Shown: one piece after another, positions 441 through 64,000 of the stretch
Layout: every line of letters begins with the position of its first letter
Numbering within the stretch: the stretch's first letter is position 1
Assembly (NCBI GenBank): GCA_016927735.1
Contig: JAFGMC010000002.1
Coordinates: 4,290-68,289, forward strand
Length of the DNA stretch: 64,000 nt
Reading direction: 5' to 3'
From: Alphaproteobacteria bacterium
GTDB lineage: Bacteria > Pseudomonadota > Alphaproteobacteria > Rs-D84
Notes under the pieces: generated by a model
What the model saw: only the letters and a program-made list of their open reading frames with translations
The model's database searches: none
Told to the model about the DNA's origin: nothing
Position numbers and translations under genes: made by a program

Positions 441-733
441 GACCCCGCAAAAGCTTTACGACACGACCAACAATTGTCAGTATTGTGTCAAGCGCCAATT
501 AGGCAGCCAATGCAAAGCGAACGTTGTCGTTCGCAGCGATAGTTTCGCCATTCAGTTTTTAACGGTCTTTAACGACACCACGTCGGATTCACTCTATTTG
601 CCTTTACTGCGCTTGTCGAATCTATGTCAGCCCCATAATTTTTATTGGTGGAGCTGTGGGGTACCGCCCCCCAGTCCAAAACGACTATTCCACAACGAAT
701 TCAGAATCATCTTCACATGTTTACACACGCGAC
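405..733 (-). ncRNA. ssrA: two-piece (circularly permuted) tmRNA gene
   Basis: The minus strand reads TGGGGGGCGGTACCCCACAGCTCCACCA, a T-arm-like hairpin plus acceptor 3' strand, with CCA at 648..646. Eleven nt later comes GGGGCTGACATAGATTCGAC, the canonical tmRNA 5' end, from 634. The tag frame GCG AAC GAC AAC GTT CGC TTT GCA TTG GCT GCC TAA encodes ANDNVRFALAA (534..499). The gene ends at a hairpin plus T-run (440..404). Acceptor piece before coding piece is the permuted alphaproteobacterial layout. Outer ends are approximate. Confidence 0.8.
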
Positions 734-739
734 ATAAAC

Positions 740-767
740 ATTATAATTAAAACACTGGAAATTGCAA
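740..767 (-). promoter_or_regulatory. sigma70-type promoter for ssrA
   Basis: Minus strand TTGCAA (767..762), 16-nt spacer, TATAAT (745..740). The predicted start is near 733. Confidence 0.45.
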
Positions 768-775
768 GTTTTTAA

Positions 776-1792
<1,017 letters not shown>

Positions 1793-5203: not shown

Positions 5204-5320
5204 GCAAAGTATATTATCAATTTATTTAATTAAATCAATAATTTTGTAATTTTGAATTTAAATGAATGTTTGCCTTTTTTTTTGCAATATGATAAAATTT
5301 GTTCAATGAGAGAGGGTTTA

Positions 5321-15083: not shown

Positions 15084-16826
15084 ATGTTATTTGGAAAAAA
15101 ATCTGGTATTAAAAACCGTAATCGCGATCGTTATGACCGCGTTCGTCGTTTAATGTGGATTAAATGCGAATCTTGTGGTCGATTGGTTTATTATAAAGAT
15201 TATAAAGACAATAAATATATTTGCCCACGCTGTAATCGTGCGTTTATTATGACGCCGAAACAAAGATTTGATATGTTTTTTGATAATAAAAATTGGGAAA
15301 AATTTTCTTTACCGATTGTTTCTGATGATCCATTAAAATTTACAGACCGTGTTTCTTATAAAGAAAGATTGGTAGATGCACGAAATGAAACGGGATCTCA
15401 TGATGCTATCACAACTGCCGATGGTGTTATAGGTGGAATTAAAACAACTGTTTGTGTATTGAATGGTGACTTTATGATGGGATCTATGGGACGCGCAGCA
15501 GGTGACGGTATTATTGCCAGTATTGAACATGCGATTGAATTAAAGCAACCGTTTATTATGGTGACATGCAGTGGCGGTGCACGTATGCAGGAAAATATCT
15601 TGTCATTAATGCAGATGGCACGAACAACTGTCGCTGTGAATAAACTGCATGCTAATAAAATTCCTTACATAGTATTGTTGGCAGACCCAACATTTGGTGG
15701 TGTGACCGCGTCTTTTGCTATGTTGGGCGATATTCATATTGCAGAGGCCGGTGCACGTATCGGTTTTGCAGGACGCCGTGTTATTGAACAAAATATTCGT
15801 GAAAAATTACCTTCGAATTTCCAAACTGCGGATTACTTGTATGAACATGGAATGGCAGATATGGTCGTGAAACGCGAAGACCTGAAACCATGTTTGGAAA
15901 AAATATTGGCAGTTCTGACAAAACAAACGAAAGAACCAAAAGAAATAACTGTTATAACACCTAATGCGGATCATACTAAAAAAATTCGTGGTATGGGGGA
16001 ATCTGGTGCATATGACAAAGTACTCTTGGCACGTAATGAAAATAGACCACACTTCTTGGATTATATCGAAGGTATAGTAGAAGATTGGACATACTTGGCT
16101 GGTGACAGACTGTATGCCGAAGATCCTGCAATGTGCAGCGGTATCGGTTTTTGGCGTGGAACCCCAGTTGTTATAATCGGTCAAGAAAAAGGTCGTACAA
16201 TCGAAAGTCGTCAAAAACATCGCTTTGGTATGCCAAACCCAGATGGTTATCGCAAAGCACAACGTATGATGAAATTGGCTGAAAAATTTGAACTGCCATT
16301 AATTTCATTATTTGATACCGCTGGTGCTTTTGCTGGTCGCGAAGGTGAAGAACGCGGACAATCCCAGGCAGTTGCCAGTTCCATTTCAAATGGATTATCA
16401 TTCAAAGCACCTTATGTTTGTGTGAATGTTGGCGAGGGTGGATCTGGTGGTGCAATTGCTATTGGGACCGGTGATCGTGTACTGATGTTGGAAAATGCAA
16501 TATATTCTGTTATTGCACCAGAATCTTGTGCATCTATTTTGTGGAAGGATAATAAATTCAAAGCTGTTGCAGCAACAGCTATGAAATTGACATCTCGCGA
16601 TATGGCAGAAATGGGTGTAATTGATGAAATTATCCAAGAACCATCAGGTGGGGCACATACAGATTGGCAAACAACTATGCAAATTCTTAGTAAGACTGTT
16701 GAAAAACATATTAAAGAATTGCAGAAGATTCCAGTTGATGAACTGCCATCACGTCGCGGGGATAAATTTATCTCTATGACACGTGATGTAGAAATATATA
16801 AACCTGATCATAAAACATCAGATTAA
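15084..16826 (+). CDS. accDA: acetyl-CoA carboxylase carboxyltransferase, fused beta (AccD) and alpha (AccA) subunits
   Basis: N-terminal AccD zinc ribbon CESCG...CPRCN and CT-beta core. From about aa 300 comes the AccA pattern (NRPHFLDYI, FGMPNPDGYRKAQRMMKLAEKF, DTAGAFAGREGEERGQ, GEGGSGGAIA, PESCASILWKD). Confidence 0.9.
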   Translation: MLFGKKSGIKNRNRDRYDRVRRLMWIKCESCGRLVYYKDYKDNKYICPRCNRAFIMTPKQRFDMFFDNKNWEKFSLPIVSDDPLKFTDRVSYKERLVDARNETGSHDAITTADGVIGGIKTTVCVLNGDFMMGSMGRAAGDGIIASIEHAIELKQPFIMVTCSGGARMQENILSLMQMARTTVAVNKLHANKIPYIVLLADPTFGGVTASFAMLGDIHIAEAGARIGFAGRRVIEQNIREKLPSNFQTADYLYEHGMADMVVKREDLKPCLEKILAVLTKQTKEPKEITVITPNADHTKKIRGMGESGAYDKVLLARNENRPHFLDYIEGIVEDWTYLAGDRLYAEDPAMCSGIGFWRGTPVVIIGQEKGRTIESRQKHRFGMPNPDGYRKAQRMMKLAEKFELPLISLFDTAGAFAGREGEERGQSQAVASSISNGLSFKAPYVCVNVGEGGSGGAIAIGTGDRVLMLENAIYSVIAPESCASILWKDNKFKAVAATAMKLTSRDMAEMGVIDEIIQEPSGGAHTDWQTTMQILSKTVEKHIKELQKIPVDELPSRRGDKFISMTRDVEIYKPDHKTSD

Positions 16827-22101: not shown

Positions 22102-22812
22102 TTACAAACTCATTGCTTTTTGTTTCATATCTGCTGGCAGTTTTTCAATGGCATAGCGGTATGCAGTGCGTGGCATTTTATCTGCGCGTGACGTCACAAA
22201 ATCATATACGCATTTTGGGTCTGTTTCGCCGACAACTTTCAGCGCCCATCCGTAACCTTTTTGAACCATATCTTGTTCATCGGTCAGCAGAACTTCGGCA
22301 ATTTCAAAAATGTCATCTGTAAATTTATTGTGACGGGCAGGTACTATAAAACTGACCGCGGCCGCGCGACGAACCCAAAGATTTTCTGACAGTGTCCAAT
22401 TTTTAATTTCTGAAATTAACTCTGGAAACTTTTCAATCATTTCACCCATTGTATGATTACAAAAAGTATCGCACGCCGCCCAATTATGAATATAATTTTT
22501 CACCCATTTTTCAAAAACCCTAAAATCTGATTTTTCAAAACTTTTTCGCATATGATAAGAAAATTCACACGCCACCATAAAATCTTCGTACCAAACAGAT
22601 TGCATTAAATCTTCACATAAACTAAAAACCGCCGATTTTTCCATTTTATCAATTTGTGTAAAATATGCGCGTGCCAGTTTTTTTATATCAGCTGACCGAA
22701 TGCCACGAAGGTTCACAGGTTCTTTAAAAAAATTCTTACCACTTTCCGCAAAACGCGTATCAGAAATTTTAGATAATTTATTTTGTATCTCGATTAACAT
22801 AATTTTATACAT
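22102..22812 (-). CDS. DNA alkylation repair protein (AlkD-like HEAT-repeat glycosylase family)
   Basis: 236 aa, helical repeats. The pattern NWAACDTFC, WVRRAAAVSF, GYGWALK matches the DNA_alkylation family. Confidence 0.65.
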   Translation of the reverse strand: MYKIMLIEIQNKLSKISDTRFAESGKNFFKEPVNLRGIRSADIKKLARAYFTQIDKMEKSAVFSLCEDLMQSVWYEDFMVACEFSYHMRKSFEKSDFRVFEKWVKNYIHNWAACDTFCNHTMGEMIEKFPELISEIKNWTLSENLWVRRAAAVSFIVPARHNKFTDDIFEIAEVLLTDEQDMVQKGYGWALKVVGETDPKCVYDFVTSRADKMPRTAYRYAIEKLPADMKQKAMSL

Positions 22813-24730
22813 GATTGTTTAATGCTGTATAAACTTGTCCCAGTTCGGTCTTTAATAATGTATTCATCAGCATATCTTTATTATCTGCTTGCTCGGCACC
22901 AGCCAATATTTTACCAAAACTGCGTACAAACTGTGTTGCCTGGGAATTGAAAACTGAATCCGATTTTAATAAACTGCGAACTTGTTTTTTATCAGCAGCT
23001 GATAACATTTTTGCCAACCATTTTGTAAAGATTATTTTATCACCTGCATGATACTTTTTCCAAATTGCATCTGGAATATCTGCACCAATGCTACGCGTCA
23101 AATCCAAAGAATGTTCATGCATTTTTTCAATCATTTTTTCAGTTTGTTTTATAAAGTCCTGACTGCTAATTCTACTGAATGATGCTGATGGGGCTGCCTT
23201 TATCGCTTCCATTGGTGCAGTTGCGCGTGCGACCATCATTTGTTTATTCAGTGTCTGCATTGTATTTACGGCCTTGGCATAATCAGACATTAAATCTATC
23301 ATCTGTTGTCTGGATTGTCCCGACAGGCTTTCTAATTTTACCGAAGATTCCGATATATTGCCCATAGATTCTGACACTGTGTCTTTTAAGATATTTATCT
23401 TTTCATTCATGGCTGCGACCATTTTTTCAAGGTTTGCTGCCATTTCTACTGACCCTTGGGATAAACCTGGAAGGGCAGCATAATATTTCTCAATCAATTC
23501 AGAAAGTGGTTGCAATTGTGCAGTTGTATCATTAGACATCTTTATTAAATTAACTGATTGTCCAGATAATTGTTTATGTGCAGTATTCATCTCCATTAAT
23601 GTTTCGCGTACACCAGATGCCATTGCGCGAACAGATTCGGAAAATGCACCAGCGGATGCCTTGGTATTTTCAAGTGTCACATTTGCAACACCAGAAACTG
23701 TTTTCAATTCATTAACGACACCAATTGTAAATTCTTTTATTTCACTGTTGAATCTGCTGGTCAACGTTGCCAATTCACCAGATACATTACGAACAGAGCT
23801 TTCCGTTGTTGTCGCAGATGACATGAGATTTTCAACAGCATCTGCAAGTTTTCTGACTTGTTTTTCAATAGAAGATTCAGCCAGTCTGATTTGTCCACCA
23901 ACTACATTTGCAGTATTGCTGAGCGTATTCATTTGGTTATTTAGTAATGTTTTGGATTGTTTTGTAAATGTATCTAACTTTTCAAGTTGTGAGCTTAACA
24001 ACTTATCATTACTATCCATCAACTTTTCATAATCTGTGGCTGATGTTTTAATCTTATCAAATCCTTCGGCTGTCGAATTTGATAACTCAACCAGCTTGTT
24101 TTGTATAATATTTGTTTCATCTGTCATATTTTTCATTTGTGAAATATTATTTTCTACATCTGATTTTAATTGTTTTGATAACTCTTTACCTGAATCAATC
24201 CAGCCATCAATATGATTCTGTATTGTTGATGTTTTATCTATTGTTTCTTGTGATACTGTATCAACTCTATTTAATAATTCATTGACACGACTTGTAAATC
24301 TTTCTGTAGATTCTTCTACACCGTTCCACCCTGGTGATGTGACAACAGTCTGTAATCCTGTCAGAGTATTATCCAAACGCTGGGACATAATTGCCATTTT
24401 CTTTGCAGCATCATCCGCCAGTTTAACCAAATTTTCATTATTACCTGATAATTCTTGTTTTAATTCTTGTGCTGATTTTATTTGAGAGCCCAGTGTTTCT
24501 TGCATTGATTTAAAACTGGTATGAATCTTATTTACTTCATCTGCTAAAATAATTTGCAACACACGTGAAGCATCTTGAATCTTTGCACGTTCAGGACGAG
24601 TTAATAATAAAAGCAATGATTCCATAACTTTTTGTGAACGACGTGATATAAAAAACAATATTACTAAGGCAACAAGTAAAACAAAGCCTAATATTCCACC
24701 ACTAATTAAAACAATCAAATCTATTTCCAT
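22805..24730 (-). CDS. membrane-anchored long coiled-coil protein, unknown function
   Basis: N-terminal TM (LIVLISGGILGFVLLVALVILFFI), then about 500 aa of Ser/Thr/Asn/Glu-rich helical low-periodicity sequence, then a distinct C-terminal domain of about 110 aa (IPDAIWKKYHAGDKIIFTKWL...). Confidence 0.7.
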   Translation of the reverse strand: MEIDLIVLISGGILGFVLLVALVILFFISRRSQKVMESLLLLLTRPERAKIQDASRVLQIILADEVNKIHTSFKSMQETLGSQIKSAQELKQELSGNNENLVKLADDAAKKMAIMSQRLDNTLTGLQTVVTSPGWNGVEESTERFTSRVNELLNRVDTVSQETIDKTSTIQNHIDGWIDSGKELSKQLKSDVENNISQMKNMTDETNIIQNKLVELSNSTAEGFDKIKTSATDYEKLMDSNDKLLSSQLEKLDTFTKQSKTLLNNQMNTLSNTANVVGGQIRLAESSIEKQVRKLADAVENLMSSATTTESSVRNVSGELATLTSRFNSEIKEFTIGVVNELKTVSGVANVTLENTKASAGAFSESVRAMASGVRETLMEMNTAHKQLSGQSVNLIKMSNDTTAQLQPLSELIEKYYAALPGLSQGSVEMAANLEKMVAAMNEKINILKDTVSESMGNISESSVKLESLSGQSRQQMIDLMSDYAKAVNTMQTLNKQMMVARATAPMEAIKAAPSASFSRISSQDFIKQTEKMIEKMHEHSLDLTRSIGADIPDAIWKKYHAGDKIIFTKWLAKMLSAADKKQVRSLLKSDSVFNSQATQFVRSFGKILAGAEQADNKDMLMNTLLKTELGQVYTALNNHV

Positions 24731-24870: not shown

Positions 24871-26472
24871 ATGTCGCAAAAACATCTAATTTCAACAGAG
24901 CAAGATATAGCTGCGAACCCCAATGAAAATGTATGGGTCCAGGCAAATGCAGGTACCGGTAAAACCAGTGTTTTGGTACAACGCCTTTTACGTATTCTTT
25001 TTAGATCTGTTGGAAATGATTATCCAACTGGTATACTGTGTTTAACCTATACAAATGCCGGTGCCAGCGAAATGCGTAACAGAATATTATCTGCTTTGCA
25101 TGATTGGGCGATTGCATCTGATGACGAACTAGTTGATATGTTAAAAGATATATCAAACAATAAAAATCCAAATAAATCTGATTTAAATCAAGCTAGAAAC
25201 ATCTTTTATAAATACATTGATAACACTGATATTTTAAAAATAAAAACTATTCATGGTTTTTGTGAAGAAATATTAAGAAGATTTCCAATAGAAGCTGAAA
25301 TATCACCTGCGTGGAATCTGATTTCAGATTCTAATCAAAGAATATTACTTTCCGATGCTTTTCACAGATTAATAAATTCACCAATACAACAAAATGATTC
25401 AAGTCAGGGCAATTTTGGTATAAATAAAACAATGGTTAACGATGCCTTTTCGCGCATAGTCGAACGTATATCAGAGCACTCGTTTGAAGAGCTTTTAGGG
25501 ACCTTGACCAAGCAATATAAACTTTTCTTTAAAATCGCTGATATTATTAAATACAGAGAATACTTTATTGATAAAACTAAATATTTTTTAGATCTAAATT
25601 CACCGATTATAACCGAAATTGAAGTTGATATATTACATAATATTATCAAAAAAGCGGAAGAAGAGGTAAAATCATCGAAAAAGCCGGCTGGATATCTGCT
25701 TACTATTATTGACTTAACAAAACAATACATTGATAAAACTATAAATTTTGAAGAATATAAATCTGCTTATTTAACCGCCTCTGATACCAAAAATGTGAAT
25801 GTGGGAAAGAAAGATTATTTGGCTGATGAGCAGGATCGTGTTTATAAATTAAATCAACGGATATTAGATGAACAAATATTTGCAGACACTGTTGCACTAT
25901 TTGATTTATCAGCCGCATTTACAGAAACATATAAAAATATAAAAGCCGAAAGAAACGCCTTGGACTTTGATGATTTAATTTTATATACCGGAAAACTATT
26001 TTCTAAACCAGATGTTATGGGATGGGTACTGTCACAACTGGATTTATCACTCAGTCATATACTCGTTGACGAGGCGCAAGACACCAGTCCAGAGCAGTGG
26101 GAGATACTGCGAATGCTTTCTGGTGACTTCTTTATAGATGGTGATACAGAATATCATACACATTCTTTATTTGTTGTTGGTGATACAAAGCAGTCTATAT
26201 ACGGCTTTCAGGGTGCAGACCCATTGGCTTTTGCAACTAGCAAAGATGATATTACTAATCAAATCAAGCAGAATCTACGCACAATCAAAGAAGTCCCACT
26301 AACCCAGAGTTTTCGTTCAACAGAACCAATTTTGCGGGCCGTAGATCATTTCTTTGGTAATTCTGATATTCTTCATATATCTGGATTTATTAATAATGAT
26401 CACAAATGCTTTCGTATTGATAAACCGGGATTGGTTGAATTACACAAATTATTCTCAAAAGAATCAAATTAG
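24871..26472 (+). CDS. addA: AddA helicase-nuclease, fragment 1 (UvrD-like helicase motifs I-IV)
   Basis: Alpha-type AddA N-terminus (NVWVQANAGTGKTSVLVQR, ILCLTYTNAGASEMRNR), DEAQDT, GDTKQSIYGFQGA and QSFRS. Ends in TAG at 26470..26472. Confidence 0.85.
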   Translation: MSQKHLISTEQDIAANPNENVWVQANAGTGKTSVLVQRLLRILFRSVGNDYPTGILCLTYTNAGASEMRNRILSALHDWAIASDDELVDMLKDISNNKNPNKSDLNQARNIFYKYIDNTDILKIKTIHGFCEEILRRFPIEAEISPAWNLISDSNQRILLSDAFHRLINSPIQQNDSSQGNFGINKTMVNDAFSRIVERISEHSFEELLGTLTKQYKLFFKIADIIKYREYFIDKTKYFLDLNSPIITEIEVDILHNIIKKAEEEVKSSKKPAGYLLTIIDLTKQYIDKTINFEEYKSAYLTASDTKNVNVGKKDYLADEQDRVYKLNQRILDEQIFADTVALFDLSAAFTETYKNIKAERNALDFDDLILYTGKLFSKPDVMGWVLSQLDLSLSHILVDEAQDTSPEQWEILRMLSGDFFIDGDTEYHTHSLFVVGDTKQSIYGFQGADPLAFATSKDDITNQIKQNLRTIKEVPLTQSFRSTEPILRAVDHFFGNSDILHISGFINNDHKCFRIDKPGLVELHKLFSKESN

Positions 26473-48057: not shown

Positions 48058-49344
48058 TTATTGCATCACTTCATTATCATTTTTTTTCAAAATTTTCGGA
48101 TTTACGGTTTTTATTACAGGTTTATCTACAACAGGATTTTCTTCATCCACGACAGGATCTTCTGTTGTCAGAGTTTCTTTTTTATCTAATACACAGTTTT
48201 TGTATTCTGTTGGTTCTATTTTTGTCCAACATTGGGTTTCTAAGGCTGAATTTTTATCTTTCTTAGGACCAAATGTTAAATCTTGGGTTGTAAACTTCAC
48301 TGAATTTTTACAAAAACCGGTTGTAGTGGCTTTGTTATCAAAAATTTTACCAGCAGGGCATTTTATACAAACACCTGTACTTTCTGGAACACCAACCCTG
48401 GCATCACCAGAACATTCAATACAAGTTTTATCTGTTGCAGATGTAAAAGCCATACCAGCAACCTTGCAACGATATTCAAAACAGCTGCCTTTGGCCGTTA
48501 AATCATGAAATTCTTCAGCAAATTTAGCCTTGTCCCAACCTGTACAAAGTGTATTCATACTGCATAATGTGTTATTTATAGCTATACAATCTGTTTTTGT
48601 TGCGTTTGGTTCATACCCATCTTTACATAATAATGTTTCTTCACCAACGCCCCAGATTGTTGCAGTAGAAACCATATCTTTCCACCCATCACGTTGCGAT
48701 CTGACCACCATTGGTCTCGCAAAAGCCCCATGTCCAGATTGCAACCATCCAGATATTCCCAAAACCATATCATGTTCCTGACCAGCATTCAAACCACAAC
48801 CTTTGTATTCGTCCCAATTAAACATAACAATTGTACTTTCTACACTTGGACCAGATTTTGTTATTTTATAACCTGAAAAATCTGACTTTTTTATAAGTGT
48901 AGAATCACATGTTGTAGAATCATCACCCGTACAACCTTCACCACTGTGACCTGGTTTACATAACCAAAAGCATTTTGCCATATTTCCTGCAGGATTATAA
49001 TATTGTGTCCATGCATTTCCCTTATTTTTATTTGCACCTTGGGCCTGAGTTACACAGAATTTTGCACCATTTTCATTTACATCACGTGCCAATAACAATA
49101 AAGTCGCCATTTCATCATCAAAAGTTCCACGATTTGCTTGATCTTTCTTAGTACCAACCCAATTTTTACAACCAGATAAACTGTTTCCAACACAAGCATC
49201 ACCCAAACTCTGTCCTAAACAATGAGACATAGGTGGATTTCCCCAAAACGCTTTCATATCACTCTTTTTTTTACCAGCGGCAAAACTAGGTACAACCAAT
49301 GTACTTAAAATAAAAGTTAAAAAGATTTTCTTTATTAATTTCAT
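48058..49344 (-). CDS. secreted Cys-rich protein (428 aa, 22 Cys), unknown function
   Basis: Signal peptide MKLIKKIFLTFILSTLVVPSFA. Cys clusters include CIECSG...CIKCPAGKIF...FC. Pro/Val/Glu-rich tail. Confidence 0.7.
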   Translation of the reverse strand: MKLIKKIFLTFILSTLVVPSFAAGKKKSDMKAFWGNPPMSHCLGQSLGDACVGNSLSGCKNWVGTKKDQANRGTFDDEMATLLLLARDVNENGAKFCVTQAQGANKNKGNAWTQYYNPAGNMAKCFWLCKPGHSGEGCTGDDSTTCDSTLIKKSDFSGYKITKSGPSVESTIVMFNWDEYKGCGLNAGQEHDMVLGISGWLQSGHGAFARPMVVRSQRDGWKDMVSTATIWGVGEETLLCKDGYEPNATKTDCIAINNTLCSMNTLCTGWDKAKFAEEFHDLTAKGSCFEYRCKVAGMAFTSATDKTCIECSGDARVGVPESTGVCIKCPAGKIFDNKATTTGFCKNSVKFTTQDLTFGPKKDKNSALETQCWTKIEPTEYKNCVLDKKETLTTEDPVVDEENPVVDKPVIKTVNPKILKKNDNEVMQ

Positions 49345-49372: not shown

Positions 49373-51685
49373 TTATAAATAACACATATTGTTGTCCCAA
49401 TAACCGCCAATTTTTTCGCACTGTAGTTTATACCAATCTTCTGTAAAACTGCATGCATCAGTTGCAGAATCATATTTTGCATAACCATTACCACCGGTTG
49501 CATCATCTTGTGCTAAACACTGATAACGTGTTGTGTTTTGTATACAATATCCACGTTCACTGGAATTAGCCTCTGAATCACTTGGGGCCTCTTTACCGAA
49601 AACGTTTGAATAGAATATAGCTTCTTTTTTGATTCCAGCTGCATCTTCAGGATCAACCCATACACCATTTGCTTCTTCACAAGCAGCGGTAAACACATAA
49701 CTTAAATTTACCTCTATATCATTAATAATATTATTAATTGAACCACCAACCAAACTCTCATCTAATGTGTTTGTTGACGGATCTATGCAATATATATTTG
49801 CACGATCATAAAACATTTTTTTCAAATCCGCACTGGAAGTAGAACGACATGCATAAGGATATTCTTCATCACCAGCTGTTGGTGTACAAACATCTTTTGC
49901 ATAATTACTAATTGATTTTTCACAACCTTCGGCAACCTTTACATTGTCAACAGTTTGAACGAATGTCAAAAGAGCTGTCAAACCACATTGTGTATTCTTT
50001 AAACGACCATTATTATCAAATTCACATTTTACATCATTTGGCCCAGCATAAAGCGCTGCACAAGCAGCAACCTTGTCTGCACACATTGCACGTGCTGCAT
50101 AGGCATTCAAAGCGCCTGTTGCCTGAGCATTAGTGTTATCAAAACTTGCCAGTGCACCAGATTGCGTATCATAACATTCTTTCATAATACTGACGCAACT
50201 ATTTTTAATTGATTCTATTTTTGCATCTTGTGCCTGTGCAATTTCAATCAGAGCACTGCGTTTAAATTCTTCCCAAACGGTTGCAGCCTTATCACGGCAA
50301 GAATCTAGGGCTTTTTCTGCAAATATTTTTTTATCGTCTAAGAATTTACTAAATCTTGGATTTGAAGATATAACATCACCAGTCTTACTGTTCAGATTCA
50401 ATATTTCGGTCAATTGGAATAACTGGGGGGAATAAATAGGGTTACCAGTATTCACATCAATATAACTGCCTGTATAATCCAAACATTTTTTATAGTTTTC
50501 ACCACATGCCATTTCACCTGTAATATTTGCTTTTACATTTGTTATACATGCATTGACATCTGCAGAATTATGGGAACGATATTCTTCTAATCTAGATTCA
50601 CGTAAAATCTTTTCTGCGTCACGAACTGTTTTTGTCACAGCTTCTTTTTGTGTATCTATCTTTTTCTCGTATACATTACAATCTTGGGTTATTAAAATAC
50701 CATAAGAACTTTTCGCCATTGTTAAAACAGCACTGTTTTCACATGAATTTTTTATTAATTCCAAACATTGTTTGTTCGCTGAATTGTATAAAGAAGTACC
50801 TTCCAATTTACTTAAATCTTCATTTGTTCCGAAATTGAAAACAGAGCCAGAAGAATTATCACCCCAAATATCACCCAAATCAGATGTAAAATCTAATGAT
50901 AAACTGGATAATGATGTCGCAGAAGAATCAACTTTTTTCTTACCAGATAATAAATCACCAATTTCAGATAATACACTGGCTGCTGCACTAGGGTCATTCT
51001 TTATCGCATTTTCACCAACCGTGGCAGAATACATTGCATTAACTTCTGAAGCTGTTTTATCAATTGCATTTAAATTATTATCTTGGAATTGCATTAACAA
51101 TGTTTTTGCTTGATCCAATGCCGCTTCTGTATCACGAAAATCTGTAATTTTACCGCTGCAATAGCAACGACGATAAGTATCATTTGATTTTGCACAAAAT
51201 TGATCCATACAAGTATTGTACGCTTCACGACATGTCGCGTAACCACCACCAATTTTCGAAACATCATCAAAGACAGCTGTTGCACGAGAAGAGGCCGCAC
51301 GAGATACAGAGCCAGGTTGAACCGATGCAGAACGTGCAGCTAAAGGAATTTGTCCTGATCTGGTTATTGTTGCCGATCTGGCATTTGTACTGTCGGGTCT
51401 GGAATTTACAGAAACTGTTTGTTTTGCTGCCGAACGATTTGTCACAACACCATTACTTTGTTGTTCAATTGTTGCCCTAGAAGTGTTTACACGACGTACC
51501 GCGGCAGATCTGTTGGATTCTTTAATATCACCCCTTTGGGAGACAATAACAGCCGCAGAACGTGGGTTAGGTGACTGTACAGCGAACGTCATACCATGAA
51601 TCCCAGCCGTAGCAAGAAAAACAAATCCAAAAAATTTAAACAGTTTTTTATTCAAAATTCTACTCTTCCTGCTGCATTTTATCAT
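49373..51685 (-). CDS. large secreted Cys-rich protein (770 aa, 28 Cys after the signal), unknown function
   Basis: Signal peptide ...FFGFVFLATAGIHGMTFA. N-terminal RSA-type repeats, then CREAYNTCMDQFC...RRCYC and paired Cys throughout. Confidence 0.75.
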   Translation of the reverse strand: MIKCSRKSRILNKKLFKFFGFVFLATAGIHGMTFAVQSPNPRSAAVIVSQRGDIKESNRSAAVRRVNTSRATIEQQSNGVVTNRSAAKQTVSVNSRPDSTNARSATITRSGQIPLAARSASVQPGSVSRAASSRATAVFDDVSKIGGGYATCREAYNTCMDQFCAKSNDTYRRCYCSGKITDFRDTEAALDQAKTLLMQFQDNNLNAIDKTASEVNAMYSATVGENAIKNDPSAAASVLSEIGDLLSGKKKVDSSATSLSSLSLDFTSDLGDIWGDNSSGSVFNFGTNEDLSKLEGTSLYNSANKQCLELIKNSCENSAVLTMAKSSYGILITQDCNVYEKKIDTQKEAVTKTVRDAEKILRESRLEEYRSHNSADVNACITNVKANITGEMACGENYKKCLDYTGSYIDVNTGNPIYSPQLFQLTEILNLNSKTGDVISSNPRFSKFLDDKKIFAEKALDSCRDKAATVWEEFKRSALIEIAQAQDAKIESIKNSCVSIMKECYDTQSGALASFDNTNAQATGALNAYAARAMCADKVAACAALYAGPNDVKCEFDNNGRLKNTQCGLTALLTFVQTVDNVKVAEGCEKSISNYAKDVCTPTAGDEEYPYACRSTSSADLKKMFYDRANIYCIDPSTNTLDESLVGGSINNIINDIEVNLSYVFTAACEEANGVWVDPEDAAGIKKEAIFYSNVFGKEAPSDSEANSSERGYCIQNTTRYQCLAQDDATGGNGYAKYDSATDACSFTEDWYKLQCEKIGGYWDNNMCYL

Positions 51686-57176: not shown

Positions 57177-59789
57177 TTATTTCAGTTTGCCACAACAATG
57201 TTTATATTTCAATCCAGATCCACAAGAACAAAGATCATTTCTACGTTCTGTTGATTGAATTTTATTTAATTCATTGTCATGTTTAACCTGTTCTTCTTCT
57301 GTTGCCTTTATATCTTCTTGGGTTAATTCCATTCTGCAGATATAAGATACTGACATTATCTTGAAATTATTTATTGTGTTACGGAAAAGTTCTAGGGCCT
57401 CTCTTTTATATTCATACAATGGATTTTTCTGTGCGTAACCACGCAGTCCGATTCCAGTTTGCAAATAATCCATTTGTTGAAGATGACGTTTCCATACAGA
57501 ATCCAACGCACCCAACATCATCTGACGTTGTGCAGTTTTCATCATATCATCATTATAACGACTCTTCTGATAATCGTATCGGCTGATTCCAAAATCTAAT
57601 AATTTTTCATAGGCTATTTGCTCTGTAATATTTTCGTCTTTTTTCCAAAGTTCTATATCTGTTATATCCAATGCAAATGTTTGCAACATTTCTTCATGAA
57701 TACCTTCAATATTCCAATCTGATGAATGTGATTTTTCTGGAATATTTTTTTCACAAATCATTTCTACAACATCGCCAATTAATTCCCTGACTAATGGATT
57801 AAAATCTTCTGATATCATCAAATCATTACGTTGCTTATAAATAACCTTACGTTGTTCGTTCATAACGTCATCGTATTTAAGCAACTCTTTACGTGATTCG
57901 AAATAACGTGCTTCTACACGCTTTTGTGCCTTTTCCAGCGCCTTTGTAATCCAAGGGTGTGTTATTGCTTCGCCAGTTTTTAATCCCAAACTTGTCATCA
58001 TTCCATCTAAACGCGCGGCGCCAAATATACGCATTAAATCATCATCCAATGCCAAGAAGAATTTAGAATTACCAGGATCCCCTTGACGTCCGGAACGACC
58101 ACGCAATTGGTTATCAATACGACGTGATTCATGCCTTTCGGTTCCGATAACATATAAACCACCCGCATCTAAAACCTGTTTTTTATTTTTTTCTATTAAA
58201 TCGTATATAGCTTTCTTTTTTTCTTCATATTCTGGATCTGCTTTGTTTAATCCCGCAATCAGTTCTTCGGCGTTACCACCCAATTTAATATCAGTTCCAC
58301 GACCCGCCATATTAGTTGCAATAGTCACAGAACCTGGTGCACCAGCCTGTGAAATTATTCGTGCTTCGGATTCATGTTGTTTTGCATTCAAAATTGCAGG
58401 TCCTATGCCGATTTCACGACGAACAACTTTTGCCAATTCTTCAGATTTTTCAATTGATACAGTTCCGACCAACACAGGTTGCTTGCGTTCCAAACATTCC
58501 CTTATTTGATTTGCAATTGCCTTGTATTTTTCATTTTTATTACGATATATCTCGTCATGATGATCAATTCTGGTGACTGCACGATTTGTTGGTATTGATA
58601 CAACACGCAAGTTATAAATTTCTTCGAATTCTGCCGCTTCGGTCATGGCTGTTCCCGTCATACCAGACAACGTAGGATACAAACGGAATAAGTTCTGATA
58701 AGAAATACTGGAAACTGTTTGATTTTCAGGTTGAACACTTACATGTTCTTTGGCTTCGATTGCCTGATGTAATCCCTTGCCGAATCTGCGACCTGTCATA
58801 ACACGACCTGTAAATTCATCAACAATTAAAATTTCATCATTACGAACAACATAATTAACATTTTTCTGATATAAATGATGCGCCAATAATGATTGTTGAA
58901 TATGCATAACCAACGCAGCGTTTTCAGAAGCATATAAATTGTCACCAACCAATAATTCACTTTCTTTTAATAGATTTGTAATTGTATCCACACCACTTTC
59001 AGTCAGTGTTACATGACGATCTTTTTCATCTTTTTTATAATCATCAGGTGACAGTTTTATAACAATTTCATTAACCTTGGCATATAATTCAGTGGTATCT
59101 TCTGATGGTCCAGAAATAATTAATGGTGTACGCGCTTCGTCAATTAAAATACTGTCCACTTCGTCAACAATTGCATAGAATAGGGGACGTAATACTTGTT
59201 GTTCTTTTGTAAATTTCATATTATCGCGCAGATAATCAAATCCCAATTCAGAATTAGTCACATAAGTAATATCACAAGCATATGCACTTTGGCGTTCTTC
59301 ATCGGACATATCATGCTGAATAATACCAATTGACAATCCCAAGAATTTATAAACTTGCCCCATCCATTCTGCGTCACGCGCAGCCAAGTAATCATTAACA
59401 GTAATCAGATGTGCACCCTTGCCATGCAAAGCTTTTAAATACAGCGCCAATGTTGCAACCAATGTTTTTCCTTCACCAGTTTTCATTTCTGCAATCTGAC
59501 CATTTGTCAAAACCATTCCACCAATCATCTGGACATCAAAATGTCGCAGACCAATTGTACGTATAGACGCTTCACGCACGGCAGAAAATGCATCCGCCAT
59601 GATATCTTTTTCTTTTTCACCAGAAGCCAACCGCTGTTTTAATAAATCTGTTTGTGAACGCAACTCTTCATTTGACATTGCGTGATATTTAGGTTCCAAA
59701 TCGTTAATCAAAGAAACATTTTTATCATAAGATTTTACAATTCTATCATTTGCAGAACCCAGAATTTTACCAAGAATACTCTTCAACAT
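57177..59789 (-). CDS. secA: preprotein translocase ATPase SecA
   Basis: MKTGEGKTLVA, DEVDSILIDEARTPLIISG, TNMAGRGTDIKLGG, C-terminal zinc motif CSCGSGLKYKHCCG. Confidence 0.97.
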   Translation of the reverse strand: MLKSILGKILGSANDRIVKSYDKNVSLINDLEPKYHAMSNEELRSQTDLLKQRLASGEKEKDIMADAFSAVREASIRTIGLRHFDVQMIGGMVLTNGQIAEMKTGEGKTLVATLALYLKALHGKGAHLITVNDYLAARDAEWMGQVYKFLGLSIGIIQHDMSDEERQSAYACDITYVTNSELGFDYLRDNMKFTKEQQVLRPLFYAIVDEVDSILIDEARTPLIISGPSEDTTELYAKVNEIVIKLSPDDYKKDEKDRHVTLTESGVDTITNLLKESELLVGDNLYASENAALVMHIQQSLLAHHLYQKNVNYVVRNDEILIVDEFTGRVMTGRRFGKGLHQAIEAKEHVSVQPENQTVSSISYQNLFRLYPTLSGMTGTAMTEAAEFEEIYNLRVVSIPTNRAVTRIDHHDEIYRNKNEKYKAIANQIRECLERKQPVLVGTVSIEKSEELAKVVRREIGIGPAILNAKQHESEARIISQAGAPGSVTIATNMAGRGTDIKLGGNAEELIAGLNKADPEYEEKKKAIYDLIEKNKKQVLDAGGLYVIGTERHESRRIDNQLRGRSGRQGDPGNSKFFLALDDDLMRIFGAARLDGMMTSLGLKTGEAITHPWITKALEKAQKRVEARYFESRKELLKYDDVMNEQRKVIYKQRNDLMISEDFNPLVRELIGDVVEMICEKNIPEKSHSSDWNIEGIHEEMLQTFALDITDIELWKKDENITEQIAYEKLLDFGISRYDYQKSRYNDDMMKTAQRQMMLGALDSVWKRHLQQMDYLQTGIGLRGYAQKNPLYEYKREALELFRNTINNFKIMSVSYICRMELTQEDIKATEEEQVKHDNELNKIQSTERRNDLCSCGSGLKYKHCCGKLK

Positions 59790-59932: not shown

Positions 59933-60148
59933 ATGAAAGAAACTATTAAAAAACTGAACAGTTCTGATATTTCAAGTGAAGTTTTTATAATTTCGCCTAC
60001 ACAAATTGAATATATCGCACAAATTTTTGGCGATTCTGTAGCAGATGCAATGAATATGCGTACATTCGCACAAAAAATCAGAAAAATTGCTGAACAATCT
60101 TTACTAAAAGCTTTAAATACTGCAAAAAAACAGGGATTGAAAAAATAA
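59933..60148 (+). CDS. hypothetical small protein (71 aa)
   Basis: An ORF only. Charged helical composition. Converges on the Cys-rich repeat gene with a 7-nt gap. Confidence 0.3.
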   Translation: MKETIKKLNSSDISSEVFIISPTQIEYIAQIFGDSVADAMNMRTFAQKIRKIAEQSLLKALNTAKKQGLKK

Positions 60149-60155
60149 ATTTATT

Positions 60156-62168
60156 TTATATACTATCATCGTATATAGAATAATCTATCCCATTGTAATT
60201 AGCCCTTATCGAACCTTTTTGACCGGTATCCATATTTCCATAATACGTTGACCCGTTTAATTGAATATACAAAGCAGGGGTTGTTTTCTTCTGACTACGT
60301 AAATGAACTTGATTACTGCCTATATTAAATACTTTTCCGCAATCACCAGCTTCATCTGCCCCAGCACCAAAACCAATTGTTGTTAATCCTGCATCGCACG
60401 CTGTACGCGTTATTAAACCATCTGCTGACCAATAAGTTGTTCCAACAGCATCACAAGCATCAACCGCAACATAATATCCACCAAAACAACCCGAGATAGA
60501 ACATAAATTATTTACTGTATTACTTCCAGAAAGCCAAGTTGCATTCGCCCAAGAACTGTCATAATTGTTATTATTTGAACAAATTGCATCACAAGAAGTT
60601 TTTCCAGTTGTACTGGTTGTTGTTCCATCTTGACATGCGATACATGAGTTTTCACCGTTATTGGTATTATACGATCCAATCGTACATGCTGTACATGTAG
60701 AATTTCCACCACGGGAATATGTCCCAGCTAAACATTCTATTGCTCCGCCGGTGACACCATAATTAATCAAGGTAGAAGGGCAATAATATCCGGCTGTACA
60801 CGTAGTTAATGTTGATGAACCAGCAGTTGAAATATATGTACCATCAATTGTTTGTATCTGACATTGGGAATCATCAGTTTTACCAGCGATAGTATTTGCC
60901 GTATAATCCGTTGGGCAATTTGTGCAAATAGATGCACCAGTCGCGGAATATGTTGCACCTGTACATTGAATTATAGAACCAATATTACCATAACCAATCA
61001 ATGCAGCAGGGCAATAATATCCGGCTGTACAAATTACCTGGGTTGTAGAATTTGCAGTTGCAATATATCGACCAGCAGTTGTTTGTAAGGCACATTGATT
61101 TAATGTTGATAAACCTGTCCCACCAGATGTATATCCCGCAGGACAAGAGTTCCTGGTGCCAGTACCACCATAGTTAATCAAAGTATCCGGGCAATAATAT
61201 CCGGCTGTACACATAGTTAATGTTGATGCATTAGCCGTTGCAATATATGTTCCCCCAGTTGTTTGTACTTGGCACTGTGAAGATGAAGTTTTGTTATTTG
61301 TTAAATTCGCATTATATATACTCGGGCAACTTGTACAACTGGCAGCACCAGACCCAGAATATGTTGCACCTGTACATGGTAATATTGAACCAGTACTGCC
61401 ATAACTGACCAGCGCAGAAGGACAATAATATCCAGCCGTACATGTTGTCACATATGTCACATTTGGCGTTGCAATATATGTTCCACCTGCCGTTTGTATC
61501 TTGCATTGATCTATCGCTGACAAACCTGTCCCACCAGATGTATATCCTGCAGGACAAGCAATTCTATTACCAGTACTGCCATAGTTTATTAATGCAGCGG
61601 GACAATAATATCCAGAATCGCAAGTATTTATTATTGTATAATATGCATATGCAAGATAGGTTCCTGCATCTGTTTGAATTTGACATTCTGAAGATGATGT
61701 TTTCCCATCTTCAAGATTATCTGTATAGCCACTCGGGCAATTTGTACAACTGGATGCACCAGATCCGGAATAGGTCGCACCCGTACAAGGTAATCTGGAG
61801 CCTGTACTGCCATAATTAACCAATGCGGCAGGACAATAATACCCAGCTGTACAACTTGTTTGACTTGTTGAATAAGCTGTTGCTATATACCGACCAGCAG
61901 ACGTTTGTAATACACATTGATCTATTACTGATAAACCCATCCCACCAGATCTATATCCCGTTGGACATCTTACACGTCCATAATTCCTTTTTGGATTATT
62001 AACATTTGAAAACCCCTCGCAATAATATTGTGATGTGCATGTTGCACAATAACTTCCACTCCAATAAGTACCGGGGTTACAACTAACTATGGCTGCCATT
62101 GCATTGCTTGTAAATGAAACTACAAACAACATCATTAAACTAGCAAAAAAATATTGGATTTTTCTCAA
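60156..62168 (-). CDS. secreted modular Cys-rich repeat protein 1 (670 aa)
   Basis: TTG start after GAGAG. Signal peptide MRKIQYFFASLMMLFVVSFTSNAMA. Alternating modules with CTAGYYCP...YGSTG and CTGATYSGSGA.SCT.CP. 142-aa non-repeat C-terminal domain ending YSIYDDSI. Confidence 0.8.
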   Translation of the reverse strand: MRKIQYFFASLMMLFVVSFTSNAMAAIVSCNPGTYWSGSYCATCTSQYYCEGFSNVNNPKRNYGRVRCPTGYRSGGMGLSVIDQCVLQTSAGRYIATAYSTSQTSCTAGYYCPAALVNYGSTGSRLPCTGATYSGSGASSCTNCPSGYTDNLEDGKTSSSECQIQTDAGTYLAYAYYTIINTCDSGYYCPAALINYGSTGNRIACPAGYTSGGTGLSAIDQCKIQTAGGTYIATPNVTYVTTCTAGYYCPSALVSYGSTGSILPCTGATYSGSGAASCTSCPSIYNANLTNNKTSSSQCQVQTTGGTYIATANASTLTMCTAGYYCPDTLINYGGTGTRNSCPAGYTSGGTGLSTLNQCALQTTAGRYIATANSTTQVICTAGYYCPAALIGYGNIGSIIQCTGATYSATGASICTNCPTDYTANTIAGKTDDSQCQIQTIDGTYISTAGSSTLTTCTAGYYCPSTLINYGVTGGAIECLAGTYSRGGNSTCTACTIGSYNTNNGENSCIACQDGTTTSTTGKTSCDAICSNNNNYDSSWANATWLSGSNTVNNLCSISGCFGGYYVAVDACDAVGTTYWSADGLITRTACDAGLTTIGFGAGADEAGDCGKVFNIGSNQVHLRSQKKTTPALYIQLNGSTYYGNMDTGQKGSIRANYNGIDYSIYDDSI
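60585..62090 (-). repeat. in-frame tandem module repeats (about 411-nt super-repeat) inside repeat protein 1
   Basis: The exact 23-mer gggcaataatatccggctgtaca occurs at 60778, 61009 and 61189. Related copies lie near 61420, 61600 and 61830. Confidence 0.8.
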
Positions 62169-62267
62169 CTCTCAATTCTCTTGATTAATATCTTAGAAAA
62201 AACACCACGAGCCTCGCAAGCTAAAAACTTTTTTATATATAAAAATTGGCTAGGAATATGATTATTT

Positions 62268-64000
62268 TCACATACTGTCATCATATACAGAATATTGTGT
62301 ACCACTTGAATTTATTCTTAAACTTCCCTTGGTATCTGTGGTCATATTTCCATAATAAACAGTACCACCAACATTTATATTCAAAGAAGGTGTTGTCTTC
62401 TTATTGCTGCGCATATATATTCTTTCAGCACCAAAGTTTAATATACGTCCACAGTCACCAGCCTCGTCAGCACCAACACCAAATCCAATTGTTGTTAACC
62501 CAGCACTGCATGCTGTACGAGTAATTGAATTATTAGCAGACCAATATCCAACACCAACTTCTGAACATGTATTAACCGGGGTATAATAACCACCCATACA
62601 TCCGTTGATTAAACATAAATTGCTGACAATATTATTATTCCATGTTGCGGTTGCCCAAGAACTGTCATATGAATTATTATTTGAACATACAGCATTACAA
62701 GAAGTTTGACCAGTTGTTGTTGTTGTTGTACCATTCTGACAAGCATAACAAAAATCTGACGCATCATCACTGTACGAACCAATCGCACAATCTGTACATT
62801 CTGACGCACCTGCATCAGAGTAAGTTCCAGGTAAACAACCATCTGTATATCCTGTGCTTCCATAACTAATTAACGCTGATGGACAATAATATCCAGGCAT
62901 ACAAGATGTTAAAGTTGTATCATTTGCAGTCGCAATATATGTTCCAGCAGTGGTTTGCCATTTACACTGAGTATTTGTTGTTTTACCATCACTGGTATCG
63001 TCAACATAATTCGTTGGACATGATGTACAACTGGTCGCTATTCCACCGGCACTGTAAGTTGGTCCAGAACATATATTACAAGTAGCGGTAGCGGTATTAT
63101 TATTTGCAATTACATAACCACCACTTGCATTTACACTATAAGTGCTGGCTGGCCAAGCAGAACCTGTATATGTAACCTGTATTGAATTCACATAAGAACA
63201 ACCTGTTATTGTTTTGTTCGGTGCTGTATATTTACAAGATATACTTCCCCCACTGCCTGTTGAAGATGTATAAGTACCGCCACTGGGGTTTACACCCGGA
63301 AGCGAACTGCATGCTATTATGGATCCAGTGTCACCGTACGCTAATAAAACAGAAGGGCAATAATAACCACCGATACATTGTGGTGCACTTGTAGCATATG
63401 CGGTTGAAACATATGTACCAGCAAGTGTTTGCCATTTACATTGATTTTGTTCAGATAATCCCGTGCCACCATCATCATAGTTTGTTGGACATGCCGTCCT
63501 GGTACCTGTACTGCCATAATTAACTAATGTAGAAGGACAATAGTATCCGGCTGTACATATTGTTTCAGTTGTATCATTACTAAATTTTATATACGTACCC
63601 CCCGTTGTTTGTAATTGACATTCATTTATTGTGCCGGCCATAGTTCCGCCATCATCATAGTTTGTTGGACATGATATTATATTACCAGTACTGCCATAAT
63701 TAACCAATGCGGCAGGACAATAACTACCAGCTGCACATGTTGTTGCACTCGTTGCATTTGCAGTTGGAATATAATAACCAGTAGTTGTTTGAAACTGACA
63801 TTGGGTAGCCGCAGTTTTATATGATTCTGTATTATCATCATAATTCGTTGGACAAGCTGTACAACTTGGTGCACCAATTGATGAATATGTAGCACCTGTA
63901 CATGCATCACAAGAAGATGTCTGACCTTGGATTACTGTATGAGCAAGTTTTGCTGTACCAGCGGCACAGGAGCTTTCCGGTGAAGATAAAACAATTACTT
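62268..64000 (-). CDS. secreted modular Cys-rich repeat protein 2 (5' end beyond the window)
   Basis: Hand translation shows the frame stays open from 63707 to 64000 (...CPAALVNYGSTGN is preceded by further modules). It has the same module types, plus a unique segment and a 139-aa C-terminal domain ending YSVYDDSM. Confidence 0.8.
   Translation of the reverse strand, partial: VIVLSSPESSCAAGTAKLAHTVIQGQTSSCDACTGATYSSIGAPSCTACPTNYDDNTESYKTAATQCQFQTTTGYYIPTANATSATTCAAGSYCPAALVNYGSTGNIISCPTNYDDGGTMAGTINECQLQTTGGTYIKFSNDTTETICTAGYYCPSTLVNYGSTGTRTACPTNYDDGGTGLSEQNQCKWQTLAGTYVSTAYATSAPQCIGGYYCPSVLLAYGDTGSIIACSSLPGVNPSGGTYTSSTGSGGSISCKYTAPNKTITGCSYVNSIQVTYTGSAWPASTYSVNASGGYVIANNNTATATCNICSGPTYSAGGIATSCTSCPTNYVDDTSDGKTTNTQCKWQTTAGTYIATANDTTLTSCMPGYYCPSALISYGSTGYTDGCLPGTYSDAGASECTDCAIGSYSDDASDFCYACQNGTTTTTTGQTSCNAVCSNNNSYDSSWATATWNNNIVSNLCLINGCMGGYYTPVNTCSEVGVGYWSANNSITRTACSAGLTTIGFGVGADEAGDCGRILNFGAERIYMRSNKKTTPSLNINVGGTVYYGNMTTDTKGSLRINSSGTQYSVYDDSM

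Follow-up and report, generated by a model that had tools for sequence, protein, structure and literature searches.

Cysteine-rich modular proteins sharing a C-terminal domain: a candidate surface-stalk family of Rs-D84 Alphaproteobacteria

Introduction

What purpose is served by the two adjacent minus-strand genes, termed here gene 1 and gene 2, that occupy positions 60156–64000 of a 64,000-nucleotide stretch of DNA (the window) from an alphaproteobacterium of the lineage Rs-D84? A preliminary description, made from the sequence, presented them as a tandem pair of secreted proteins assembled from cysteine-rich modules and closed by a common, novel C-terminal domain (CTD). Rs-D84 genomes are mostly smaller than 1 Mb and are without biosynthetic or respiratory pathways; the organisms are probably symbionts or parasites and have been proposed to depend on a partner organism (PMC12306168). 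The same account of their biology names only unspecified hypothetical membrane proteins (PMC12306168).

Bacteria of Rs-D84 or Candidatus Enterousia are widespread in the guts of humans, livestock, birds and insects. The family to which genes 1 and 2 belong offers a concrete candidate for the apparatus by which they contact other cells, one in which protein length evolves fast and some genes exceed 10 kb, more than 1% of the genome. Our analysis leads us to regard the CTD, on sequence comparison, as an undescribed protein family and the gene pair as probably representing the cell-surface fibril or adhesin family of this lineage.

The gene pair

Both open reading frames (ORFs) were found as described, adjacent on the minus strand and with gene 1 complete at 670 residues (Table 1). 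The NCBI version of gene 1 (JW974_00640, labelled 'hypothetical protein') has 659 residues from an internal ATG. We favour the TTG start, which regains a basic n-region (MRK...) and with it an alignment to the signal peptides, initiated at ATG, that three orthologues possess. The N-terminus then reads MRKIQYFFASLMMLFVVSFTSNAMA with cleavage before AIV and, judged by eye, has a basic n-region, a hydrophobic core and an AXA site. The same layout is seen in the three orthologues (AFA↓A, AYA↓A and AFS↓A), which bears out the Sec signal proposed for gene 1; clear signal peptides also start many other members of the CTD family. Lipoprotein anchoring of gene 1, considered on account of the lipobox-like sequence IVSC, was rejected since the orthologues have KVTC, RITC and AVDC at this position.

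Gene 2 terminates at 62268–62270 and its open frame reaches base 63998, which gives 576 codons within the window. The frame is thus open at the edge as first reported, with one codon fewer than the minimum of 577 then given. The proposal to follow the gene past position 64000 succeeded in part: the public record (P0007, JW974_00645, 'partial') extends it to 922 residues, still without a start; the contig end falls inside the gene. In that record a weak F5/8-type-C-like insert lies upstream of the window. The region between genes 1 and 2 was inspected for a promoter or terminator and none was convincing. All public copies of the family among those retrieved are unnamed or labelled 'hypothetical'.

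The shared C-terminal domain

In gene 1 the CTD comprises residues 530–670 (141 residues, six cysteines). In the predicted structure its core is made up of a disulfide-closed Gly/acidic loop, GLTTIGFGAGADEAGDCG, and after it three β-hairpins. The motifs TIGFG.GADEAGDCG, KKTTP and Y-S-[IV]-YDDS-[IM] occur in both proteins, and the last 145 residues are 62% identical between them, so that the earlier estimate of 55–60%, made by eye, was a little low. We define here a 'YDDSM' CTD family by an 80-residue core at or near the C-terminus, with the consensus C-x-G-L-T-T-I-G-x-G-x-G-A-D-E-x-x-D-C-G ... L-R-S-x-K-K-T-x-P-x-L ... Y-G-N-M ... Y-S-[VI]-Y-D-D-S-[MI].

The best conserved part of the proteins is their last 80–110 residues. 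The mean column identity of our alignment A2 of the domain is 71%, and both window genes score 137–147 bits against the profile made from it. Matches between the CTD and its relatives in phmmer searches (E about 1e-16 to 1e-98) are far beyond chance, and the domain is present in 63 of the 120 listed relatives of gene 1. A profile search of 1.84 billion representative sequences found the CTD in 598 proteins at E <= 1e-3, 393 of them at E <= 1e-10, in polypeptides of 57–6644 residues. Amongst 241 retrieved proteins with a complete CTD, the domain ends within three residues of the C-terminus in 178 and 4–20 residues from it in a further 37. A second conserved module, of about 130 residues, that contains cysteines (...GTGCWC...C..KCG..CANNMKG...) follows the CTD in P0028, P0043, P0046 and about 20 others; the extension of P0028 matched nothing in Pfam.

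The novelty claimed for the domain is upheld by comparisons with Pfam, NCBIfam, PHROG and the sequences of the PDB, which gave neither a family nor a relative. No type IX secretion system (T9SS) sorting domain (PF18962 or TIGR04183) was detected on the CTD in Pfam and NCBIfam at E <= 10, and the same Pfam scan did detect PF18962 in P0120, a protein to which we return below. An 84-residue CTD profile run against a word-indexed protein database retrieved short fragments only and added little.

The predicted model of the CTD has a predicted local distance difference test score (pLDDT) above 90 at residues 40–145, with low confidence for about the first 40 residues. It depicts a compact, monomeric domain with strands of 4–8 residues that are polar on both faces and with conserved Arg/Lys and acidic residues. 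Since the strands are short and polar and a hydrophobic helix is absent, the domain should be neither a membrane barrel nor a transmembrane anchor. Fold searches of the PDB and BFVD with this model gave no match below E = 0.19; the PDB matches fall mostly on the cysteine-rich N-lobe, and the best viral (BFVD) matches are uncharacterized phage proteins. The idea that the CTD is a phage tail-fibre module was rejected, with no copy present in 2.9 million viral contigs.

The cysteine-rich array

Gene 1 carries three A–B pairs between an N-terminal cap and a linker. Module A has 60 residues with four cysteines and module B 77 residues with six, somewhat more than the roughly 55 and 75 first assigned; the unit of 137 residues, or 411 nucleotides, stands as described. 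The two modules share a 43-residue tail with the motif QT..G.YI...C..GYYCP...YG.TG and differ in their heads. Copies are 60–70% identical as protein and 60–73% as DNA, and a repeat search of the region gives spacings of 231, 180 and 411 nucleotides. The exact 23-mer GGGCAATAATATCCGGCTGTACA was found again at 60778, 61009 and 61189, at no other site in the window, and the longest exact repeat in the module region is 36 nucleotides. The number of cysteines is even in every segment of gene 1 and reaches 46 (7.1%) in the mature protein, as befits the cysteine-rich modular character first ascribed to it. The mature protein is also rich in Thr, Ser, Gly and Tyr and acidic, with a pI of 4.75. The cap is conserved among close orthologues.

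The cysteine-paired linker noted earlier is present in both sequences, and a single repeat of this kind joins the array to the CTD. By the Pfam profile it is a genuine Ephrin_rec_like repeat (PF07699, gathering cutoff 23.1 bits), scoring 32.1 bits over residues 482–525 of gene 1, or 35.0 bits when scanned alone, and a borderline 23.3 bits in gene 2. Ephrin_rec_like was the sole match in scans of the whole proteins, single modules and the CTD against Pfam, NCBIfam and PHROGs. Single A and B modules matched no Pfam family significantly: B reaches 11.7 bits (E = 0.24) against Ephrin_rec_like over 16 residues and A does not match it. TNFR_c6 (PF00020, cutoff 29.4 bits) gave 11.4 bits (E = 0.46), on the linker only. 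Searches of PDB sequences with gene 1, the CTD profile and an A–B–A module profile also gave no significant match. As far as sequence profiles go, membership of Ephrin_rec_like is a matter of the one linker repeat.

The predicted structure tells us more about the modules. An AlphaFold model of A2–B2–A3, computed with 34 related segments as input, has a pLDDT of 96.3 and a predicted template modelling score of 0.82. The leading matches in a fold search, the mastigoneme protein MST1, Elapor1, EphA2, RANK and other TNFRs, are of one class. The best, 8wa2 (MST1), has a match probability of 1.0 and 22% identity over 190 columns; the E-values of the set, which includes 8wa2, 9vqm, 2x11 and 3me4, are 1.6e-3 or higher with TM-scores of 0.2–0.38. 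By prediction, then, A and B appear to fold as a β-hairpin disulfide ladder of the ephrin-receptor/TNFR type, and we place them as a divergent subfamily of these repeats that existing profiles do not model. The resemblance to ephrin receptors and TNFRs first proposed is in this way carried by the linker score and the fold matches, without a significant Pfam score for A or B. No profile match indicated the Giardia VSP-like or furin-like relationship suggested at the same time. The mastigoneme domains matched here closely resemble the ephrin receptors' cysteine-rich domain, and the regular disulfide ladder makes that extracellular hair robust (PMC10602792).

That such repeats are mainly eukaryotic was an overstatement. 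A homology search with gene 1 retrieved many proteins of uncultured bacteria with Ephrin_rec_like, TNFR_ELAPOR1, NCD3G or Flg_new repeats, together with weak eukaryotic matches (E about 1e-9 to 1e-10). Some of these distant bacterial relatives of the array bear sorting signals: P0120 has a T9SS Por_Secre_tail at residues 868–944 of 947, and P0048, P0060, P0066 and P0083 have an N-terminal prepilin methylation motif. Cysteine ladders like those of ephrin receptors, usually deemed eukaryotic, are thus in common use for building the surface proteins of bacteria.

Table 1. Positions of the two genes, their segments and their neighbours within the window
Feature	Coordinates	Strand	Remarks
Gene 1	60156..62168	-	Complete, 670 aa, TTG start
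Gene 1 signal peptide, aa 1-25	62094..62168	-	Sec (signal peptidase I type), ...TSNAMA↓AIV, read from sequence
Gene 1 cap, aa 26-67	61968..62093	-	42 aa, 4 Cys, C.PGTYW.G..C..C...YYC.GF; sequence, orthologues
Gene 1 array A1-B1-A2-B2-A3-B3, aa 68-478	60735..61967	-	Boundaries 61788, 61557, 61377, 61146, 60966
Gene 1 linker, Ephrin_rec_like (PF07699), aa 479-529	60582..60734	-	51 aa, 6 Cys; Pfam profile
Gene 1 CTD N-lobe	60399..60581	-	61 aa, Cys-rich (4 Cys), less conserved; model, sequence
Gene 1 CTD core	60159..60398	-	80 aa, ends ...YSIYDDSI, without known family; profiles, model
Gene 2	62268..64000	-	C-terminal 576 codons, frame open to window edge
Gene 2 modules B, A, A	63312..63902	-	B 63672-63902, A 63492-63671, A 63312-63491; sequence
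Gene 2 non-repeat insert	63072..63311	-	About 80 aa, Ser/Thr/Gly-rich, 4 Cys, no family match; Pfam, sequence
Gene 2 last B-type module	62838..63071	-	Sequence
Gene 2 linker, Ephrin_rec_like	62688..62837	-	23.3 bits, cutoff 23.1
Gene 2 CTD	62271..62687	-	N-lobe 62511-62687, core 62271-62510; 62-63% identical to gene 1 CTD
Conserved 71-aa ORF MKETIKKLNSSDISSEVFIISPTQIEYIAQIFGDSVADAMNMRTFAQKIRKIAEQSLLKALNTAKKQGLKK	59933..60148	+	Convergent with gene 1, between gene 1 and secA
secA	57177..59789	-	Downstream neighbour of gene 1, marks orthologous locus

Distribution and locus

When one genome from each of 185,579 species was scanned, 137 CTD loci emerged, and the locus details given here come from the best 80 of these. 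Nearly all 80 are metagenome-assembled genomes (MAGs) from gut, rumen or termites labelled Alphaproteobacteria, 'Rickettsiales' or Candidatus Enterousia; the hosts are mammals, including humans, birds and termites. One further locus is in a MAG with the isolate name Zod_Metabat.497, which from the record name we take to be from the sulfidic Zodletone spring. The CTD family is confined almost wholly to MAGs of Rs-D84 or Candidatus Enterousia, and Rs-D84 genomes hold several copies each. With a SecA 80–86% identical to those of 40 of the loci, the window very probably falls in this lineage too. The domain could serve as a marker in metagenomes, as a lead to the matching envelope machinery and as a target on the cells, for example in antibody enrichment.

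Four loci (L002, L050, L074 and L056) are labelled Muribaculaceae or Bacteroides fragilis and yet carry the CTD. L002 (OZ246409.1, a 716,531 bp 'chromosome 1') has a SecA 83% identical to that of the window and the same synteny. These four records are probably mislabelled or mis-binned, and L002 may be a complete 0.72-Mb Rs-D84 chromosome.

Across relatives the locus of genes 1 and 2 has the order tolQ–tolR–TolA-like, the CTD gene or genes, the 71-residue ORF, secA and dnaE, of which the tol part would fall upstream of gene 2, past the window edge. secA follows the CTD gene in 40 of the 80 loci at a median distance of 431 nucleotides, with dnaE next in 26. The 71-residue ORF is in the same position in 43 loci (52–85% identity) and has no family in Pfam and no relative among PDB sequences. 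On the other side, 16 loci, among them that of the closest relative, L001, have ybgC–tolQ–tolR and a TolA-like gene ahead of the CTD gene; these genes are visible only where the CTD gene is short enough for the flank to have been captured. L001 has the same tandem pair, its 454-residue protein being the orthologue of gene 1 and its 905-residue protein, with an F5/8-C-like insert, that of gene 2.

tolB and pal are the usual followers of tolQ–tolR–tolA. In L001 (3114–5713) and 16 other loci the order is ruvB–nudix–ybgC–tolQ–(GNAT)–tolR, TolA-like and then the family gene. A Pal-like lipoprotein is encoded away from the family gene in one member of the lineage (L031, 2792–3208); the notion that the family replaces Pal was dropped on this account. 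L031, from a termite-gut MAG, also encodes a small secreted cysteine-rich protein of 221 residues (632–1297, plus strand; signal peptide MKKILFLIFALALLPISVFA) about 8 kb upstream of its family gene.

Module number, selection and duplication

Gain and loss of modules, suggested at first from the DNA repeats, is evident from the orthologues of gene 1. They have three modules in L001 (AAB), four in P0006 (ABAB), six in the window (ABABAB), seven in P0003 (AABABAB) and nine in P0002 (ABAABABAB). Two near-identical relatives differ by about one module. P0006 and the L001 protein agree completely in their final pair of modules, so that a module has been gained or lost recently. The termite-gut member in L031 is minimal, consisting of the cap and CTD without an A or B module. 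At the secA-linked locus the CTD protein ranges from about 450 to more than 3500 residues, while the SecA proteins of the 40 loci stay 80–86% identical to that of the window. This is the behaviour expected of a length-adjustable spacer between two functional ends.

Over the C-terminal 192 codons the ratio of nonsynonymous to synonymous substitution rates (dN/dS) is 0.22–0.26 with dS above 1, from which we take the genes to be functional; over the last 84 codons it is 0.09–0.21. Between genes 1 and 2 dS over the 192 codons is 1.3–1.45, a saturated value, so the duplication is old. The same value speaks against gene conversion between the two copies, which had been proposed, and recent conversion was rejected. 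Despite the saturation, a module of gene 1 (61804–61839) and one of gene 2 (63688–63723) share an exact match of 36 nucleotides. It is a weak hint, and could stem either from exchange on a small, local scale or from constraint on the codons of the YYCPAALVNYGSTG motif.

Proposed role: surface stalks with a common handle

How might such proteins work? We give about an even chance to the idea that genes 1 and 2 encode exported surface stalks of variable length with a shared sorting or anchoring CTD, and rate in the same way their description as two old paralogues of an Rs-D84-specific family of exported, disulfide-bonded rod proteins. The proteins would be made in the cytoplasm, exported by Sec and oxidized in the periplasm, and then displayed on the cell surface as rigid stalks or fibrils. 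The A/B array would be a spacer of adjustable length that sets the reach. The variable N-terminal parts (the cap, lectin-like inserts of the F5/8-C type and Flg_new repeats) would contact a partner cell or substrate, and the invariant CTD would be the common handle by which the protein is sorted across the outer membrane or held on it. The strongest indirect argument for the CTD as a handle comes by analogy from the distant relatives of the array. Since these carry Por_Secre_tail at the C-terminus, or else a prepilin motif at the N-terminus, the C-terminal slot suggests itself as the place for a sorting module.

Several observations weigh against this assignment. The passengers of the CTD vary a single theme and are not unrelated to one another, so the CTD may simply belong to one protein family instead of acting as a portable tag for sorting. 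In 26 of the 241 proteins with a complete CTD (about 11%) an extension of 97–209 residues follows it; members can therefore do without a free C-terminus, and this speaks against a signal that is cleaved and strictly terminal. The fold search with the CTD was uninformative, and the E-values obtained with the modules are marginal even at their best (1.6e-3). A partner gene was sought beside the loci away from secA and only a HI0933-like flavoprotein, DnaK, an ABC ATPase, TatD and a Trp/Tyr-tRNA ligase were seen; within the sequence covered, the 64 kb of the window and 20-kb pieces of related genomes, no partner for outer-membrane secretion or anchoring was found.

A bolder version holds that the CTD is the address tag of a novel outer-membrane sorting or attachment route in Rs-D84, parallel in function to the type IX CTD of Bacteroidota and with a possible link to the Tol genes next to it. 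We hold this to be unlikely as a whole. Were it true, long, disulfide-laddered fibrils bearing the CTD would be the means by which these gut bacteria, metabolically dependent and with genomes below 1 Mb, attach to the cells on which they live.

Alternative explanations

The stalk might instead point the other way, with the CTD as a ligand-binding head, such as a lectin-like tip for a conserved partner structure, and the protein held by other means or released. Some bacterial adhesins, for example the type I-secreted RTX adhesins, bear their binding domains C-terminally; the CTD is compact and globular with conserved Arg/Lys and acidic residues, and some members bear an extra domain beyond it. 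Set against this, signal cleavage would leave no N-terminal anchor, since the orthologues lack a lipobox and a transmembrane segment is absent, and the lectin-like inserts, which vary, are found N-terminal to the CTD. The very strong conservation of the domain between sources as disparate as a sulfidic spring, termites and humans also fits a self component better than a host ligand. We judge the reversed orientation to have a minor share of the probability, about that of the address-tag proposal.

The position of the family gene directly after tolQ–tolR–TolA-like raises the alternative that the proteins are periplasmic, structural components of the envelope that work with the Tol system and not surface fibrils. 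The arrangement is kept in the 16 loci noted above, the closest relative included, and a Sec signal by itself brings a protein only to the periplasm. However, in half of the loci the family gene lies elsewhere, in the company of unrelated housekeeping genes and without a recurrent partner; the genomes are all close relatives, so that shared gene order may simply be inherited; and one lineage member has its own Pal-like lipoprotein. Members of 2000–6644 residues would, moreover, be far too long for the periplasm. A role with Tol is improbable in our estimation, clearly less favoured than a reversed stalk.

More improbable still is that these are decoy receptors acquired from a eukaryote, secreted TNFR- or Eph-like proteins that mimic the host and bind its signalling ligands. 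The predicted fold is like that of the cysteine-rich regions of TNFR and Eph, weak eukaryotic matches exist and bacterial Ephrin_rec_like domains have been regarded as rare transfers from eukaryotes (PMC6993872). The A and B modules are, however, not significant against TNFR_c6 or Ephrin_rec_like, the GC content of the genes matches that of the rest of the window, and other uncultured bacteria have many related arrays that come with sorting modules of bacterial type. The family is also found in termite-gut MAGs and, by record name, in the Zodletone-spring MAG, besides mammals and birds.

That the genes are decaying pseudogenes or artefacts of repeat assembly, as the contig end within gene 2 and the many related loci at contig ends might suggest, we dismiss, since the reading frames are intact (no frame disruption of the kind raised in the preliminary description was seen), the dN/dS values were obtained at saturated dS, the same architecture recurs in more than 40 species, and modules of 60–73% DNA identity that share at most 36 nucleotides exactly make short-read collapse unlikely and the assembly of the region credible.

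Other features of the window

An ORF of 533 residues (24871–26472, plus strand) matches the first 532 of the 1138 positions of the alphaproteobacterial AddA model (TIGR02784) and may be a truncated or split gene. The acetyl-CoA carboxylase carboxyltransferase subunits appear to be fused in an ORF of 580 residues (15084–16826, plus strand), in which residues 16–282 match AccD and residues 304–567 AccA. Five ORFs have no NCBIfam match: 49373–51685 (770 residues), 48058–49344 (428 residues), 22805–24730 (641 residues), 10199–11494 and 5252–6547 (431 residues each). For the first two there is also no significant match in Pfam. A relative of the 428-residue ORF that contains cysteines and is Ser/Thr-rich at its N-terminus may be present again in 23 related loci, downstream of dnaE.

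Comparison with known systems

Ephrin_rec_like/TNFR-type repeats (the clan of PF07699, TNFR_c6, NCD3G and TNFR_ELAPOR1) are elongated ladders of β-hairpins stapled by disulfides, and the linker of the window proteins scores above the cutoff for them. The A and B modules, in contrast, are missed by the Pfam profiles and have fixed lengths of 60 and 77 residues, in bacterial proteins with neither a transmembrane segment nor a kinase. Chlamydomonas MST1 (PDB entries 8wa2, 8tx1 and 9b4h) is the best structural match; it is an extracellular, hair-like filament with a disulfide ladder resembling the cysteine-rich domain of ephrin receptors. MST1, which polymerizes into that filament, differs in being a glycoprotein of a eukaryote that has Ig domains as well as a polyproline helix, and it showed no homology to the A/B profile at the level of sequence.

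The variant-specific surface proteins (VSPs) and high-cysteine membrane proteins of Giardia also form a multi-copy family with a variable cysteine-rich exterior and a highly conserved C-terminal end. In the window proteins, however, there is no C-terminal transmembrane helix and no CRGKA tail, and the conserved end is predicted to be a soluble β-domain. The whole proteins gave no Pfam match to a VSP profile at E <= 1; the C-terminus is polar, ends in YDDS[IM] and is without a hydrophobic helix.

Substrates of the T9SS, a Bacteroidota system, share the general plan: a Sec signal, a variable passenger and a conserved, β-rich C-terminal domain of about 80 residues (Por_Secre_tail, PF18962), with several such proteins per genome. 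The present family is unlike them in that the PF18962 profile misses the CTD, that a portion of its members extend past the CTD, and that the host is an alphaproteobacterium.

Finally, the giant repeat adhesins of Gram-negative bacteria (autotransporters, trimeric autotransporters and RTX adhesins) are very long, vary in repeat number and have a conserved terminal module for export or anchoring. Neither protein, nor the CTD, matched a C-terminal β-barrel or YadA-type anchor in Pfam; the family is likewise without a two-partner secretion or RTX domain and, as regards type I RTX adhesins, a Sec-type signal is present and no RTX match was found in Pfam. The repeats abound in disulfides, an unusual trait among proteins that traverse the outer membrane in unfolded form. 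In terms of function, and by analogy, we would nevertheless place the CTD family with these adhesins, as long repeat proteins with a terminal sorting domain, an assignment that we think could equally well prove right or wrong.

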